From Clostridia bacterium (GTDB lineage Bacteria > Bacillota > Clostridia > Oscillospirales > CAG-272): a DNA stretch of 64,000 nt. How positions within the stretch are numbered: position 1 is the first letter of the stretch; each line of letters begins with the position of its first letter. Positions 39,816 through 51,932 of this stretch are shown piece by piece. The notes under the pieces were generated by a model. The model did no database searches, had not been told where the DNA came from, and saw only the letters and a list, made by a program, of their open reading frames with translations. The stretch lies in assembly GCA_017415805.1 (NCBI GenBank), contig JAFQEC010000004.1, forward strand, positions 2,843-66,842, in the 5' to 3' direction. Position numbers and translations under genes: made by a program.

Positions 39816-40100
39816 CTGCAAGAAACGATAATATTAAGGGGGTGAGATCGCCAAGGCTCCGCAAAACGCGGTTCACAAGAACCAAGCCCACGCGCTGTGC
39901 AGGGGCTTGGTTCTCGCATTTCCAATTCTTTTTCTACATTTTCCAACTTTTGATATTTCTCGTTCTATTTTCAATTCTCTCTCTTTCTCGTTTTTGTTCT
40001 GCTCTCCCCCTCTTTTTTCGACCTTCCCCGTTTTGAGAAAGAGAAACGCCATCACAGCAACACTCTAACGGCTTACTTGTTCGCACTTTGCTATGGCAAA

Positions 40101-40252
40101 GAGAGAGGACGGCTACGCCTATTCGCCACGCCAAGTCCTGCGGACTTGCTATGAAGATGCGTTTGGTGCCCACGGGGCTCCATTCGCTTCGCGAACCGCG
40201 CATCTTCCCCTCGCCGCCACTTTGTGGCTGCGCGGTTTCTCTGTACCCTCTC
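40101..40252. repeat. Structured tandem repeat, unit 1
   Basis: Near-identical to 40297-40448 (196-bp offset) outside a 17-nt patch at 40161-40177. Internal hairpins are CAAGTCC/GGACTTG, GAAGATGCG/CGCATCTTC, TTCGC/GCGAA and GCCAC/GTGGC. Confidence 0.85.
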
Positions 40253-40290
40253 CGCCATAGCAAAAGGGCACCCGATTGGGTGCCCTTTTC
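40253..40290. terminator. Terminator-like hairpin between the repeat units
   Basis: AAAAGGGCACCC-GATT-GGGTGCCCTTTT hairpin. Confidence 0.6.
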
Positions 40291-40296
40291 TTGTGA

Positions 40297-40448
40297 GAGA
40301 GAGGACGGCTACGCCTATTCGCCACGCCAAGTCCTGCGGACTTGCTCTGAAGATGCTCTTGTCGCCAAAGCGGCTCCATTCGCTTTGCGAACCGCGCATC
40401 TTCCCCTCGCCGCCACTTTGTGGCTGCGCGGTTTCTCTGTACCCTCTC
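40297..40448. repeat. Structured tandem repeat, unit 2
   Basis: Copy of 40101-40252. The variable patch lies at 40357-40373. Confidence 0.85.
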
Positions 40449-40491
40449 TTTGCCATAGCAAAAGGGCACCCGTTTGGGTGCCCTTTTGCTA
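40449..40491 (-). terminator. tRNA-Ser terminator (20-bp perfect hairpin)
   Basis: GCCATAGCAAAAGGGCACCC-GTTT-GGGTGCCCTTTTGCTATGGC hairpin directly after the tRNA CCA end. Confidence 0.75.
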
Positions 40492-40583
40492 TGGCGGAGA
40501 GAGAGGGATTCGAACCCTCGTTGGGGTATTAGCCCAAACACGATTTCCAGTCGTGCGCCTTAGACCAGCTCAGCCATCTCTCC
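40492..40583 (-). tRNA. tRNA-Ser (anticodon GGA)
   Basis: 92 nt. Acceptor stem GGAGAGA/TCTCTCC, anticodon loop CUGGAAA, long variable arm, GGTTCGAATCC T-arm, and an encoded CCA. Confidence 0.9.
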
Positions 40584-42499: not shown

Positions 42500-42574
42500 G
42501 CCTGCATAGTTAAATGGATATAACAACCCCCTCCTAAGGGGTAGTTACAGGTTCGATTCCTGTTGCGGGTGCCA
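42500..42574 (+). tRNA. tRNA-Arg (anticodon CCT)
   Basis: 75 nt. D-arm GTTA/TAAC, anticodon stem ACCCC/GGGGT with loop CTCCTAA, T-arm ACAGG-TTCGATT-CCTGT, and an encoded CCA. The acceptor stem has two G-U pairs (1-72 and 4-69). Confidence 0.75.
42531..42574 (+). repeat. Direct repeat, left copy (attL-like; 3' part of tRNA-Arg)
   Basis: CTCCTAAGGGGTAGTTACAGGTTCGATTCCTGTTGCGGGTGCCA. It matches 44891-44934 at 42 of 44 positions. Confidence 0.85.
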
Positions 42575-42605
42575 CAGGGCAGTCAATTAGGGCTGCCCTT
42601 TTTAA
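42575..42605 (+). terminator. tRNA-Arg terminator
   Basis: AGGGCAG...CTGCCCT hairpin followed by TTTTT. Confidence 0.7.
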
Positions 42606-42716
42606 TTTGCATCACCATTTATATCTGAAAAAATTAAATTGTCCACCTTTTGTCACCCTACATTTAACAAAATATGTGCTATAATTAAATTACAATCTCA
42701 TAGAAAGGAGAATTTT

Positions 42717-42905
42717 ATGTTGAACCAAGAAGAAAAAAAGTATCAGGATTTTATCAATAAATTCAAACGCTCTTTGGCGGAATTGGAAAGAGATTTTGCT
42801 GAATTGTCCGAAATCAATAAACCAAGAGCTGCAACAGAACTTGTTGAGTTTGTTGGAAAGCAAACTGTATTGAAAATGGCAATGTCGGCAATAAGTGGCA
42901 GATAA
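42717..42905 (+). CDS. Hypothetical small helical protein (62 aa)
   Basis: ATG 42717 follows an AAAGGAGAA RBS. An extended -10 (TGcTATAAT) lies upstream. The protein is charged and coiled-coil-like, with no recognisable motif. Confidence 0.45.
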   Translation: MLNQEEKKYQDFINKFKRSLAELERDFAELSEINKPRAATELVEFVGKQTVLKMAMSAISGR

Positions 42906-42917
42906 TACAGCTTCCCG

Positions 42918-42946
42918 TTGACAAATTCTCAAACATATGGTACAAT
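42918..42946 (+). promoter_or_regulatory. Strong promoter inside the islet
   Basis: TTGACA (42918-42923), 17 nt, TACAAT (42941-42946), with a TGg extension. Confidence 0.75.
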
Positions 42947-42952
42947 AATTGC

Positions 42953-43111
42953 GCTACACAAATCGAATACCTTTAGTCCAGAGTGGGTATTTTTATCTAT
43001 GGTAAAAATGCATACTCCCTTTTCTGCGTGCTCTGGCTAGTGGTAAAGATTTGTGTAGCAACAATTGGAGATGCGTTTTTCGTGCGTCTCTGATTGGGGC
43101 GCACTTTTTTT
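42953..43111 (+). ncRNA. Unassigned structured leader: 107-nt rod closed by a 12-bp helix, plus alternative antiterminator/terminator hairpins
   Basis: GCTACACAAATC (42953-42964) pairs with GATTTGTGTAGC (43048-43059), with inner CCAGAG/CTCTGG pairing. Hairpin 43068-43090 and terminator 43082-43104 (followed by T7) share nt 43083-43090. Confidence 0.5.
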
Positions 43112-43135
43112 ATTTTACTTTTGGAGGATTTAAAA

Positions 43136-43915
43136 ATGGCATTTCAAAGATACGATGGATTTGTAGGGAGCGCACCACAAAAGAAAATGGATAACGGCCT
43201 TCCCAAGTGTCCTTTCTGTGGAGAACACCCACACTGGTTATTGGATTTACAATCGGGCTTTACGGCAACAATGACGTGTATGTGTGAAAAATGCGGTGGA
43301 AAATTATACTCGGAAAATCACGGATTTTCTTTTGATGATAACATGCGAATTGTAGATGTTGGCACCAAAAATCTAAATAATCTCCCATTAAATTCCGTAT
43401 ATCACATTAAATCATTGAACACGATAGCACAAAATACTTTTTACAATGGTGGACAACAGTCCAATCCCTCGACCGGTGGATTTGAAGCGACATCACACAC
43501 TACATATACACCATCATATACGGAACAGAAATCTAAAAATAACAAAACTGCTGTTGCAGTCATTTCTGTAATATCGATCATATTGTTTATTGGTATAATG
43601 GCTTGGATTTTATTGCCCGGTGGCGGAGGTAATAAGATAGATGTTGTTGTAAATTCCTCTTCTATGCAAGTCGAAGAATTGTTTGGAACTTACACAGCAA
43701 CGGTTACGGGTAAAATCACTAATAACTCGTCAAGCACACTAGATTACGTGCAGATTACAATTTCCTTGTATGATAGTGCAGGTAATGTCGTAGGTACGGC
43801 AATTGATAATCAGTTGAATTTAGGTGCAGGAGAAACTTGGAATTTCTCTGCTATGGGTATGAGTTCTACTACACGACCAGTTTCTTGCAAAGTCACAGAT
43901 GTAACATATTATTGA
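43136..43915 (+). CDS. Membrane protein: N-terminal zinc ribbon, one TM helix, C-terminal FxLYD domain
   Basis: ATG 43136 lies 8 nt after GGAGG. Zinc ribbon CPFC...CEKC, TM helix AVAVISVISIILFIGIMAWILL, and VTGKITNNSSSTLDYVQITISLYDSAGNVVG...GETWNF, which fits the FxLYD pattern. Confidence 0.7.
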   Translation: MAFQRYDGFVGSAPQKKMDNGLPKCPFCGEHPHWLLDLQSGFTATMTCMCEKCGGKLYSENHGFSFDDNMRIVDVGTKNLNNLPLNSVYHIKSLNTIAQNTFYNGGQQSNPSTGGFEATSHTTYTPSYTEQKSKNNKTAVAVISVISIILFIGIMAWILLPGGGGNKIDVVVNSSSMQVEELFGTYTATVTGKITNNSSSTLDYVQITISLYDSAGNVVGTAIDNQLNLGAGETWNFSAMGMSSTTRPVSCKVTDVTYY

Positions 43916-43950
43916 TTTCGTAAGGTGGGTATCCCACTTACGAAACTTTC
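43916..43950 (+). terminator. Terminator after the FxLYD gene
   Basis: A 14-bp perfect stem (TTTCGTAAGGTGGG-TAT-CCCACTTACGAAA). The T-run is weak. Confidence 0.6.
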
Positions 43951-44108
43951 GGAGAGGGCGAAAAATTGACGCGTGACGGCAAATTGATCCCTCTCCTTAT
44001 CCTGTTTCCTAAAATGATAAATTCAATGACTTGTGTACCTGTATAAATACATTGATTAATTGACAATTTTATGATATAATTATCAAAATAAAATTGAGAG
44101 AGTAAATA

Positions 44109-44726
44109 ATGATAGGAATAAAATTATTCAAAGAACAAGAATATGCCGAACAGTTTATGAAAGGGCAAATTTATATAAGCGCTGCTGGGCGTTTTTCAAA
44201 AGCTACAGATGCACAACGGCGTTATACCGAAGGAATGATTCCAATTTTTGATAAACCATTGGTTATAGATGGGCAGGTTTTTAATGTGCCTTATTCCTTT
44301 AGTTATCTTGAACTTGATCGAGTTCCCGTGTTTTGTTTTACAATTTTAGACGAAAGAAATAGCACTATTGTTGATAAAACTCTTAATCACGATATTCCAA
44401 AAGGCAATCACGAGTTAGGAAAACATCTTGTGCTATTTGATGTAGATGAATTTTACAGAATACTATCTCAAAAAGTAACCGCTTGTGGTTGTGGCATTAT
44501 TGGCAAAAAGGTTAAATACTTTGATTTTAATAATTTAAAAGACAATTCGTGGCATAATGAAATAAAAACTCCGTATGACTGTTTGTTTTTACACGATATT
44601 AAGCATAAAAATCAAAATGAATTTAGATTTGTATTAACTGAAAAAATATTTGATCCGGGATTTGAGAGTACAATTGTTGATGTAGGCGAGTGGGATAAAA
44701 AACCTCAATATATGGAAATAGAGTAA
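44109..44726 (+). CDS. Hypothetical cytoplasmic protein (205 aa), no recognisable family
   Basis: An ORF in AT-rich DNA with an RBS-like GAGAGAG 8 nt upstream and a TTGATT-17-TATAAT promoter. No motif was recognised by eye. Confidence 0.5.
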   Translation: MIGIKLFKEQEYAEQFMKGQIYISAAGRFSKATDAQRRYTEGMIPIFDKPLVIDGQVFNVPYSFSYLELDRVPVFCFTILDERNSTIVDKTLNHDIPKGNHELGKHLVLFDVDEFYRILSQKVTACGCGIIGKKVKYFDFNNLKDNSWHNEIKTPYDCLFLHDIKHKNQNEFRFVLTEKIFDPGFESTIVDVGEWDKKPQYMEIE

Positions 44727-44802
44727 CTGGTTTTCGTACACCTATTGTACACCCGCACACTACAAACCGCCGCAAAAACCACCAACAACTACACAACCTA
44801 CC

Positions 44803-44845
44803 GAGCGTAAAATCTGCGTTTTTCGTGGATTTTACGCTCATTTTG
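44803..44845 (+). terminator. Terminator-like hairpin at the right end of the islet
   Basis: GAGCGTAAAATC-TGCGTTTTTCGTG-GATTTTACGCTC, followed by ATTTTG. Confidence 0.6.
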
Positions 44846-44890
44846 AAAGAAAATCCCCAAAGCGCAGATATAAACGAACATTTATGAAAA

Positions 44891-44934
44891 CTCCTAAGGG
44901 GTAGTTACAGGTTCGATTCCCGTTGGGGGTGCCA
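44891..44934 (+). repeat. Direct repeat, right copy (attR-like tRNA-Arg 3' fragment)
   Basis: CTCCTAAGGGGTAGTTACAGGTTCGATTCCCGTTGGGGGTGCCA. No tRNA 5' half lies upstream of it. Confidence 0.85.
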
Positions 44935-44974
44935 AAAAAACCGAGCTTGGTTGCAAAACCAAGCTCGGTTTTTC
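44935..44974. terminator. Bidirectional terminator
   Basis: CCGAGCTTGGTT-GCAA-AACCAAGCTCGG hairpin flanked by A7 and T5. Confidence 0.8.
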
Positions 44975-44978
44975 TGAT

Positions 44979-45230
44979 TTAATCCAACTCAAGATCCTCG
45001 CGTCTGAAAATATCGTCGTTCATAAATTCTTCGACTGTCATGTTGAAGCCGCGCGCGAGTCTGAATATTGTTGTGAAGGAGACCGTATTGTTTTTGCCTT
45101 GCAATATCCGATCCATGGCGCCGTGAAAAATTCCGGAGTCTTGCTCCAAACGATATTGTGTCATGCCTTTGCTGTGCAACAATTGAATAATTCTTATAGC
45201 AACTGCATCATTTATCGTCAAATTTTCCAC
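44979..45230 (-). CDS. XRE-family HTH regulator
   Basis: 83 aa. IRIIQLLHSKGMTQYRLEQDSGIFHGAMDRILQGKNN is an HTH_3-like sequence. Confidence 0.7.
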   Translation of the reverse strand: MENLTINDAVAIRIIQLLHSKGMTQYRLEQDSGIFHGAMDRILQGKNNTVSFTTIFRLARGFNMTVEEFMNDDIFRREDLELD

Positions 45231-45348
45231 CTCCTGCCTTTGTAAATGCGTATATATTTTATCATTTTTCCAAAAGCAATATACGCCTTCACAAAGGCGT
45301 AATGGTGTGGTATAATATGAGACGAATATATGCGAAAAGAGGTCGACA

Positions 45349-45777
45349 ATGACGATTGTGAAATATATAGTGGTCGGAATTTTGCTATTTGCCGCAATAT
45401 TCTCTTTCGTGTTTTTTCTGACAGATAAAACCGAGCACTACACGGTCGATAGCTATGTGCAAGAGCCTCTGGTGTATATTACCGATCACGGCGAATGTTA
45501 CCACGCTTGGAATTGCCACTATCTGGAGCGATCAAAAAACGCGAACGGCTTGTACGATGCTCGTTCAAAAGGATATCGCGCTTGTTCCTATTGTGATGGG
45601 GCCCCTCACGGAACAATCGAGGTTCCGTACAAGAAAACAGAGGCACAAGACGTTACATGCAAGGTTGTGATCCAAGCCATCATTTTTGCATCTGTTGGCA
45701 CCCTTCTGTATGCAACGGGATGTGTAACAATCCACTTTTACAGAAAAAGCAACACAAAAAAGGAACGGCAGATATAA
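45349..45777 (+). CDS. Membrane-anchored protein with a CYH-x3-C ... C-x2-C zinc-binding motif
   Basis: 142 aa with N- and C-terminal TM helices. The central sequence is HGECYHAWNCHYL...GYRACSYCDG. The promoter is TTCACA-17-TATAAT with a TG extension. Confidence 0.55.
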   Translation: MTIVKYIVVGILLFAAIFSFVFFLTDKTEHYTVDSYVQEPLVYITDHGECYHAWNCHYLERSKNANGLYDARSKGYRACSYCDGAPHGTIEVPYKKTEAQDVTCKVVIQAIIFASVGTLLYATGCVTIHFYRKSNTKKERQI

Positions 45778-45817
45778 TCGTCTGCTGTTCCTTTTGTATT
45801 TCATTTATACGTTTCCT

Positions 45818-51808: not shown

Positions 51809-51932
51809 AATCTTCTCCTTCTCGCCGGGCCCAGACGGTCGGCCTTATGCGCTTATTATTTTTACATTCCCCTGCGGTGCTCCGCTCAGCCACACGGATG
51901 TATGGCGGGCCGTCAGTCATGTAACTATTATC

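Follow-up and report, generated by a model that had tools for sequence, protein, structure and literature searches.

In a Clostridia bacterium of the Oscillospirales (CAG-272; assembly GCA_017415805.1), a leader of about 190 nt precedes the gene for a 259-aa membrane protein within the 64,000-nt stretch analysed here (contig JAFQEC010000004.1, positions 2,843 to 66,842 of the forward strand; hereafter the window, whose positions serve as coordinates throughout). All parts of the leader are on the plus strand. Its sigma-A-type promoter (42918-42946) combines TTGACA (42918-42923) and, with a 17-nt spacer, the extended -10 element TGgTACAAT (42938-42946), and at a score of 11/12 plus the TG it is the top site of a 3.6-kb scan; transcription is predicted to start at about 42952-42954. 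At or adjoining the 5′ end so predicted is the first strand of the closing helix P1, GCUACACAAAUC (42953-42964), whose partner is GAUUUGUGUAGC (43048-43059). Inside P1, helix P3 pairs ACCUUUAGUCCAGAG (42969-42983) with CUCUGGCUAGUGGU (43031-43044) in the minimum-free-energy (MFE) fold, and the tip is a hairpin (42987-43011) made of arm a′, GUAUUUUUAUC (42987-42997), the loop UAU and the arm GGUAAAAAUGC (43001-43011). This apical hairpin vies for segment a, AAAAAUGCAUACUCC (43004-43018), with segment b, GGAGAUGCGUUUUU (43067-43080), to which a is complementary and which follows P1 after the linker AACAAUU (43060-43066). The partner of b may be either a, giving an anti-antiterminator, or the apical part of the terminator, giving an antiterminator with the linker and the GGAG of b as its 5′ arm; the antiterminator hairpin (43062-43096; 43062-43075 with 43083-43096) is the one present in the MFE fold of the full leader. 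The intrinsic terminator (43082-43111) has the stem GUGCGUCUC (43082-43090) / GGGGCGCAC (43096-43104), the loop UGAUU and a run of seven U (43105-43111), the end of which is 24 nt from the ATG. Ribosome-binding site and open reading frame (ORF) together occupy 43123-43915, with GGAGG at 43123-43127 and the ATG at 43136. The arrangement is probably that of a cis-acting transcription attenuator, belonging to an RNA family for which neither Rfam 15 nor the literature searched has a match.

The 186-nt leader folds at -63 kcal/mol, compared with -41.8 +/- 4.0 kcal/mol for 200 dinucleotide shuffles (z = -5.3), none of which (0/200) had an equally stable fold, and the antiterminator and terminator states of the window leader are iso-energetic, at -62.1 and -61.8 kcal/mol. 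Several of these elements had been picked out in a preliminary description of the sequence, and its near-consensus promoter, its perfect 12-bp closing helix (present both in the sequence and in the MFE fold), its terminator at 43082-43104 followed by seven T, and its ribosome-binding site and start codon all stand. The CCAGAG/CUCUGG pairing that it nested within the closing helix is a portion of the longer P3; the GGGUAU/AUA..CCC pairing placed beside it is not retained in the nearest variants, as L005 and L014 (L numbers denote other loci) carry GCGCAU against an unchanged AUACUCCC, and the apex is instead the hairpin of 42987-42997 with 43001-43011. Two mutually exclusive 3′ hairpins were rightly recognised, the first being slightly wider, at 43062-43096, than the 43068-43090 assigned to it. 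The helices of that description are thus largely borne out, while the complementarity of 43004-43018 with 43067-43080, and with it the anti-antiterminator layer, had been overlooked.

A covariance scan of the leader against Rfam 15 gave no match at the gathering threshold nor at E <= 10, which agrees with the earlier failure to place it in a known riboswitch class, and what permissive searches (the leader at E <= 10, three typical members at E <= 5) returned were weak chance matches such as RAGATH-22, which scored 24 bits where 120 are required. Scanning of the window together with 24 further member loci yielded tRNA and ZTP only, none of it on the leader. Related leaders precede homologues of the downstream protein in L001, L002, L003, L005, L010-13, L014-15 and L016-19, where protein identity ranges from 95% down to 48%, and are absent from the homologue loci L004, L009 and L020. 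A DNA pattern generalised from five leader variants, which required segments a and b, was then the basis for a metagenome collection of the kind that the preliminary description had proposed: at least 120 loci match, about 110 of them being true members with the full architecture, and many of the contigs carry a human gut label. Covariance model R1, made from 13 sequences of one other subfamily and excluding the window, recovers the window element at 42951-43111 with 44.9 bits (E = 5e-9, model positions 1-213), and R2, which includes the window, scores it at 87 bits.

Across the family the leader is about 160-270 nt long (median 212). A typical member of about 210 nt has a P1 of 13-16 bp, P1b, a small P2 hairpin then UUUU, a long P3, and an apical hairpin with the 7-bp stem GAAUUUG/CAAAUUC and a 9-nt A-rich loop; the P1 repeat length for the family as a whole is 12-23 bp. 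The window copy is an atypical short, rod-shaped variant which is without P2 or a three-way junction and has a longer apical stem. The promoter is part of the conserved layout, with a 17-nt spacer in 96 of 103 members, a TGn extension in 83% and a -10 box that ends 6 nt before P1 in 87 of 103, and the start codon follows the U-run at a median distance of 23 nt. No pattern match was present in IMG/VR viral contigs, and BLAST of the leader gave chance matches at the promoter region only for phages and nothing for plasmids, so that the leader is not a phage element. The conserved strings did not occur in a full-text literature search covering 8 million papers, and for the largest survey of RNA motifs in the human microbiome, that of Fremin and Bhatt 2021, the first 200 of the 408 supplementary files contain no match to the leader; the family could nevertheless sit unnamed in a human-microbiome RNA-motif catalogue. 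A shortened leader is found at L006:2850-3003 (also in L007 and L008), in L006 with an orthologue of the window gene adjoining tRNA-Arg. This remnant retains UUUCCUGCGU…GCUACAAC and has lost segment b and the terminator, and it is probably a natural variant with constitutive expression.

That the helices are maintained as RNA structure is evident from compensatory change, counted on an alignment of 82 sequences fitted to the model. Pairing is possible in 93.4% of 4606 cells, compared with 69.3% in shuffles and 33-42% when partners are slid, and double changes occur in 51 of 60 pairs, with 1081 double-change cells against 334 in shuffles. P1 has 97.6% of its cells paired and double changes in 9 of 13 pairs; for the terminator helix the figures are 98.5% and 9 of 9. 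An alignment-free check compared the duplex energy of each member's own strands with that of strands crossed between members: for P3 the medians are -18.3 (own) and -7.3 kcal/mol (crossed), with 92% of own duplexes below the 5th percentile of the crossed, and for P1 they are -18.1 and -9.9 kcal/mol. P3 is kept with quite other sequences, for example ACCUUUUACGAG/CUCGUAAAGGU in L014 and UUUCAUAAAGAG/CUCUUAUGAAAG in L005. Non-canonical cells are G.U rather than A.C by 559 to 67 across helices (P1 39 to 7, P3 195 to 10, P1b 113 to 28, and the terminator helix 129 to 1), and this excess points to selection on the sense-strand RNA, not on the DNA or the antisense strand. The undescribed structured cis-leader with a terminator/antiterminator platform that had been suspected is therefore a conserved family with compensatory changes in its helices. 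Within a subfamily that is 86% identical, variation clusters in the P3 and terminator stems and is compensatory; in an alignment of 13 such leaders (A4) columns 81-89 / 121-129 are a compensatory hot spot of P3 with three pair types per position, which could be neutral drift or could reflect selection for copies to differ.

Nucleotides conserved at 90% or more are in the outer P1 (GCCAAAC/GUUUGGC, conserved across copies), the apical hairpin with its A-run, the linker, the GGAGUUUGCGUUUUU block directly after P1, and the terminator. Segment a, which makes up the 3′ half of the apical hairpin, reads AAAAAUGCAAAUUCC in typical members. The complementarity of a and b is the most conserved feature of the family, extending over 14-16 bp in 102 of 103 members, with 98.3% of its cells paired against 28-58% when slid. 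In the window the a:b complementarity (43004-43018 with 43067-43080) amounts to 14 bp and one bulged A, with a duplex energy of -15 kcal/mol. Because both segments are conserved, column-wise covariation of a:b is almost absent, and such variation as occurs is wobble-compatible. The main support for a:b comes from a few divergent copies, in which matching changes on the two sides preserve the pairing. L164 has lost one nucleotide on each side (CAAUUCC/GGAGUUG) and its own duplex is at -18.8 kcal/mol, the crosses with the consensus being at -14.4 and -13.4; L171, changed at several positions on each side, has -21.2 for its own duplex and -16.7 and -13.4 for the crosses; and in L002b, the second and divergent copy of the L002 contig, a′, a and b are all rewritten (GGGAAAAUAC / GUGUUUUCUC / GAGGGAAACA) with both pairings kept, a:b being at -12.7 kcal/mol and its consensus crosses at -5.4 and -5.1. 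The a′ arm varies in concert with a in L002b and in L176.

The linker and the GGAG of b are also able to pair with the apical part of the terminator (in typical members CUAUCGGAG with CUUCGGUAG), and 92.1% of the antiterminator cells are paired; at alignment columns 335:387 the antiterminator pair is AU in 36 members, UA in 23 and AA in none. The energy of the antiterminator state minus that of the terminator state has a median of -0.3 kcal/mol over 102 members (interquartile range -1.4 to 1.5). For a:b the duplex energy is about -15 to -17 kcal/mol; for the apical hairpin of typical members it is only about -4. As a nested alternative to P1 and P3, a:b was rejected, being 16-22 kcal/mol worse. 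Since a is inside P1 and b outside it, a:b must be a pseudoknot with P1/P3, and it would be expected to form beside them. A comparison of P3 with P1 length, intended for a fold-back pseudoknot, gave a negative correlation that is confounded by the distance window of the search pattern and is not used.

Read from sequence in this way, the leader is a chain of four mutually exclusive helices, namely the apical hairpin a′:a, a:b, the antiterminator and the terminator, and it is by premature transcription termination that the leaders probably turn their downstream genes on and off. A strong constitutive promoter would transcribe a folded domain of P1, P3 and the apical hairpin, with P2 and a three-way junction also in most members. 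Segment b, emerging directly after P1, would meet a before the top of the terminator is transcribed. Once a:b has formed, b would be barred from joining the linker against the terminator top, no antiterminator could arise, and the terminator would fold with a stop about 25 nt before the start codon, so that the default state, a:b plus terminator, is expected to be off. Were a withheld, because the apical hairpin is stabilised, a factor binds or conditions are adverse to long-range pairing, b would be left free, the antiterminator would form and the gene would be read through. As to what the input might be, the candidate put forward tentatively, at somewhat less than an even chance, is a protein or RNA that acts in trans by capturing segment a or the apical hairpin. 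Next in preference, though with a low probability, is a variable of a physical or kinetic nature (Mg2+, temperature or the speed of RNA polymerase at the U-run, for example), and a small-molecule ligand is slightly less likely still.

Several considerations weigh against interpreting the leader as an attenuator of this type. The 3′ end near 43111 and the start site are predictions from the sequence only. A pseudoknot of 15 bp would be needed for a:b, and its steric feasibility is in doubt, especially in the rod-shaped window variant. There is one double change for a:b in the 82 sequences, so that its support comes from a few divergent copies. The large alignment is model-fitted, and most members were gathered with a pattern that demanded a and b. 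Across the loci no conserved neighbouring gene or regulator, and no candidate gene for a factor, was found.

The distribution of conserved nucleotides also bears on whether the P1-P3 domain, the 107-nt element of the preliminary description, might be an aptamer, as the term riboswitch-like used there would allow, with a small molecule or ion tipping the competition between the apical hairpin and a:b. Strong covariation, and a terminator/antiterminator pair placed after a structured domain, are what such a riboswitch would display. Ligand-stabilised pseudoknots are common among riboswitches, that for ZTP included, and one ZTP riboswitch is present in the window at 51822-51930. The leader is, moreover, multi-copy and precedes very diverse genes, many of them for surface proteins. 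Multi-copy leaders before diverse surface genes recall second-messenger riboswitches, for instance the cyclic di-GMP (c-di-GMP) riboswitch c-di-GMP-I in Clostridia. The nucleotides of the three-way junction and internal loops are nonetheless not conserved, the junction columns being below 70% over the 82 members, and all but 7 of the 33 unpaired positions that are conserved at 90% or more are used in a:b, the antiterminator or the terminator; the exceptions are five U-run positions, one A after segment a and one linker A. Variants of the window type lack P2 and the junction entirely, P1 at 12-23 bp is far longer than a ligand-gated P1, and the regulated genes have no common metabolic theme. 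With no conserved pocket nucleotides, and no junction in the window variant, a classical small-molecule riboswitch is unlikely, and we consider a riboswitch for a small molecule or ion quite improbable as an account of the family. The likeness to pseudoknot riboswitches with terminator platforms, of which ZTP/pfl is an example, is that a loop within the main domain finds its partner in a 3′ strand beyond the domain, and that this long-range pairing competes with the expression platform. The long-range helix of the leader is, in contrast, 15 bp rather than 5-8 bp, it would favour termination instead of blocking it, and conserved ligand-pocket nucleotides are missing from the leader family.

The leader is not particular to the Zn-ribbon/FxLYD gene with which it was first associated, since the same leader stands before 69 unrelated protein clusters, into which the 116 downstream ORFs fall. 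Among their products are many lipoproteins and secreted or membrane proteins, as well as Zn-ribbon proteins; the domains represented include SLH, BspA-LRR, C-type lectin, CHAP, trypsin-like, DUF5067 and DUF4352, and there are also an SPFH protein, an EcoRI-type methyltransferase (type II) and one UzuA match. The 86%-identical subfamily precedes at least a dozen different genes, and the downstream ORF is co-oriented with the leader in every case. Anti-phage defence was not enriched, with only 7 PADLOC families, each in 1-2 of 60 downstream proteins. It is possible, though we regard it as doubtful, that there is a genome-wide regulon in which one and the same self-contained RNA device keeps dozens of unrelated surface, envelope and defence genes of abundant human-gut Clostridia switched off until a single trans-acting factor or signal, by capturing the apical hairpin, releases them all at once. 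Were this so, it would be a new class of global riboregulation, with a reach comparable to that of the T-box or c-di-GMP systems, and the hypervariable P3 might give each copy its own identity.

A gene set of this nature raises another prospect, that of an invertible switch in the 5′ untranslated region causing phase variation, as with Clostridioides difficile cwpV. A site-specific recombinase would use the P1 strands as its inverted repeats; the orientation seen would supply a, and so a:b, the terminator and the off state, and inversion would put the complement of a in its place, with the antiterminator and the on state resulting. In cwpV the promoter is upstream of the left of two 21-bp imperfect repeats that are 195 bp apart, an intrinsic terminator is present in the OFF transcript only, and genomic DNA is 96% OFF (PMC2784873). 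The layout of the leader matches this, with promoter, inverted repeat, a segment of about 100-200 bp, second repeat and gene, with an intrinsic terminator in the leader transcript exerting control, and with surface proteins as the products of the regulated genes (PMC2784873). In the window the 12-bp perfect inverted repeat (42953-42964 / 43048-43059) flanks a segment between promoter and gene, a is within the repeats and b outside, the outer P1 is conserved across copies as would be expected from one shared recombinase, and lipoproteins, BspA-LRR, SLH, lectin and CHAP proteins, a type II methyltransferase and UzuA are typical of phase-variable loci. All of the approximately 41 leader observations that were gathered irrespective of orientation nevertheless share one orientation, none of the ~41 being inverted, in what are consensus assemblies only, where a minority orientation would escape notice; they comprise 9 distinct loci reached via the window protein, one locus sampled 10 times and 22 contigs reached via a second protein. 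As evidence this agreement is weak, given that cwpV too is OFF in 96% of its genomic DNA. P1 shows selection at the RNA level: the repeats and the helices within them show sense-strand covariation and a G.U bias that fit this strand only. In addition, the terminator of the leader family, unlike that of cwpV, is wholly outside the repeats, the tuned competitor hairpin a′:a, which covaries with a in L002b and L176, would be needless for a DNA switch, and no recombinase or integrase is among the ORFs of the 3.2-kb island that holds the leader (see below), though a distant master recombinase is possible. An invertible DNA switch is, in our estimation, highly improbable.

A further reading, which we judge very unlikely, dispenses with regulatory input. 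The leader would be a fixed expression cassette, in which a strong promoter, an mRNA-stabilising 5′-terminal stem and a leaky terminator give low constant output, or a repeat resembling a miniature inverted-repeat transposable element (MITE), or else the terminated RNA of about 160-200 nt would itself be the product, a small RNA. Stems at the 5′ terminus protect Firmicute mRNAs, and P1 does begin at the predicted +1. Multiple copies with terminal inverted repeats before unrelated genes, including two copies on the single contigs L105 and L002, are in accord with a cassette or a MITE-like element, and if the terminator is off by default, so strong a promoter should give rise to a short RNA in abundance. 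Three conserved and mutually exclusive pairing layers that are balanced within about 1.5 kcal/mol are, on the other hand, hard to explain without a decision being made. Conservation is also not confined to the repeats and what they enclose: the promoter boxes upstream share in it, as do b, the terminator and the spacing of the ribosome-binding site downstream. The flanks are unrelated, and target-site duplications were not seen. Downstream on the same strand an ORF is invariably reached within about 23 nt, and orthologous genes retain the leader over protein identities of 48-95%. The second copies just referred to are at L002:7767-7924 and L105:6371-6572, 2-4 kb from the first, and that of L002, in which the rewritten a′, a and b still pair, has no clear ORF within 100 nt.

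Among known attenuators, a close parallel for the proposed attenuation is with the pyr attenuators of Bacillus, which are controlled by PyrR. Both have three mutually exclusive pairing layers upstream of an intrinsic terminator, with the decision made at the most 5′ element, the anti-antiterminator. The pyr system has an off-by-termination design that a trans-factor can bias. Its anti-antiterminator is a local hairpin, in contrast to the 15-bp long-range pairing across a closed domain in the leader, which also has no PyrR binding loop and whose regulated genes are unrelated to pyrimidines. A PyrR-like box in the window, AGUCCAGAGUGGG (42975-42987), is not conserved in other members, and the Rfam PyrR model gave no match. 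With T-box leaders the family has in common that it is multi-copy in Firmicutes and that a long 5′ helical domain is followed by competing antiterminator and terminator hairpins, as well as variable stems on a conserved platform; it differs in that a specifier loop, the T-box sequence and any link to aminoacyl-tRNA genes are all absent. There was no Rfam T-box match, and the antiterminator 5′ arm, CAAUUGGAGAUGCG (43062-43075), is without the T-box motif. An attenuator with an anti-antiterminator is an already known principle; the leader family, its long pseudoknot-type anti-antiterminator and its multi-copy spread before unrelated surface and accessory genes appear to be new. Other candidates were considered and set aside. 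No tandem repeat of the kind in a type III toxin-antitoxin (ToxI-like) RNA is present in 42850-43200 at a score of 30 or more. As for a leader peptide, a 40-aa ORF at 42918-43040 starts inside the -35 box, L001 and L005 both lack the short AUG frame of 42999, and a GUG frame within the terminator is not conserved.

The leader is in a low-GC island of 3.2 kb (42600-45800; 33-40% GC compared with 55-60% in the flanks) which adjoins tRNA-Arg(CCU) at 42500-42574 and resembles a horizontally acquired cassette. Its five ORFs encode a 62-aa helical protein, the leader-controlled membrane protein, a 205-aa protein, a divergent HTH_26 protein and a 142-aa membrane protein, all poorly characterised. The regulated protein has a cytosolic Zn-ribbon/beta domain, one transmembrane helix (residues 128-159) and an external Ig-like beta-sandwich, and a fold search of its structure model against the PDB gave generic Ig-like sandwich matches only. 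Two further near-consensus extended -10 promoters on the plus strand, at 44052-44080 and 45288-45316 (10/12 and 11/12, both with TG), precede the 205-aa and 142-aa ORFs, with short leaders in which the motif is absent; no second leader copy and no further b-like or a-like partner was found in the window. Elsewhere in the window, the riboswitch at 51822-51930, on the minus strand, is a known ZMP/ZTP (pfl) aptamer (51.3 bits, gathering score 39) unrelated to the leader, and a 196-bp unit is present in two tandem copies (93% match) at 40100-40487, adjoining tRNA-Ser(GGA) at 40492-40583.

At other loci too, leader-gene cassettes are often within about 1 kb of tRNA genes (L001, L002, L006-8, L064, L072, L082, L084 and L105), with tRNA-Arg(CCU) recurring at the window, L001 and L006, and this proximity suggests tRNA-linked insertion hot spots. 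A second recurrent sequence, …CTTGTATAAGTCAAGCACCCGCCAAAGTGCCATTTT…, for which Rfam has no match, is found 100-200 nt upstream of the leader promoters of L053, L072, L084, L097, L128, L050 and L016. In one branch of the family (L154-L175, positions 256-498) the leader heads a three-gene operon for a DUF1413 protein, a 71-aa membrane protein and a Zn-ribbon/TPR protein, and Zn-ribbon/TPR proteins recur near leaders at 15 loci.

Clostridia are abundant in the human gut and are genetically hard to study, and to our knowledge the control of their variable surface and accessory genes is largely unknown. From that perspective the family is a single conserved and easily recognised handle, marking 69 unrelated protein clusters as co-controlled, and the proposed role of a:b as anti-antiterminator is a concrete hypothesis that lends itself to testing by mutation. 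The leader is a candidate new Rfam family and would be a natural balanced attenuator with four competing helices and a long pseudoknot. If a common factor or signal does release the leaders, finding it would expose a surface-remodelling regulon in these commensals.

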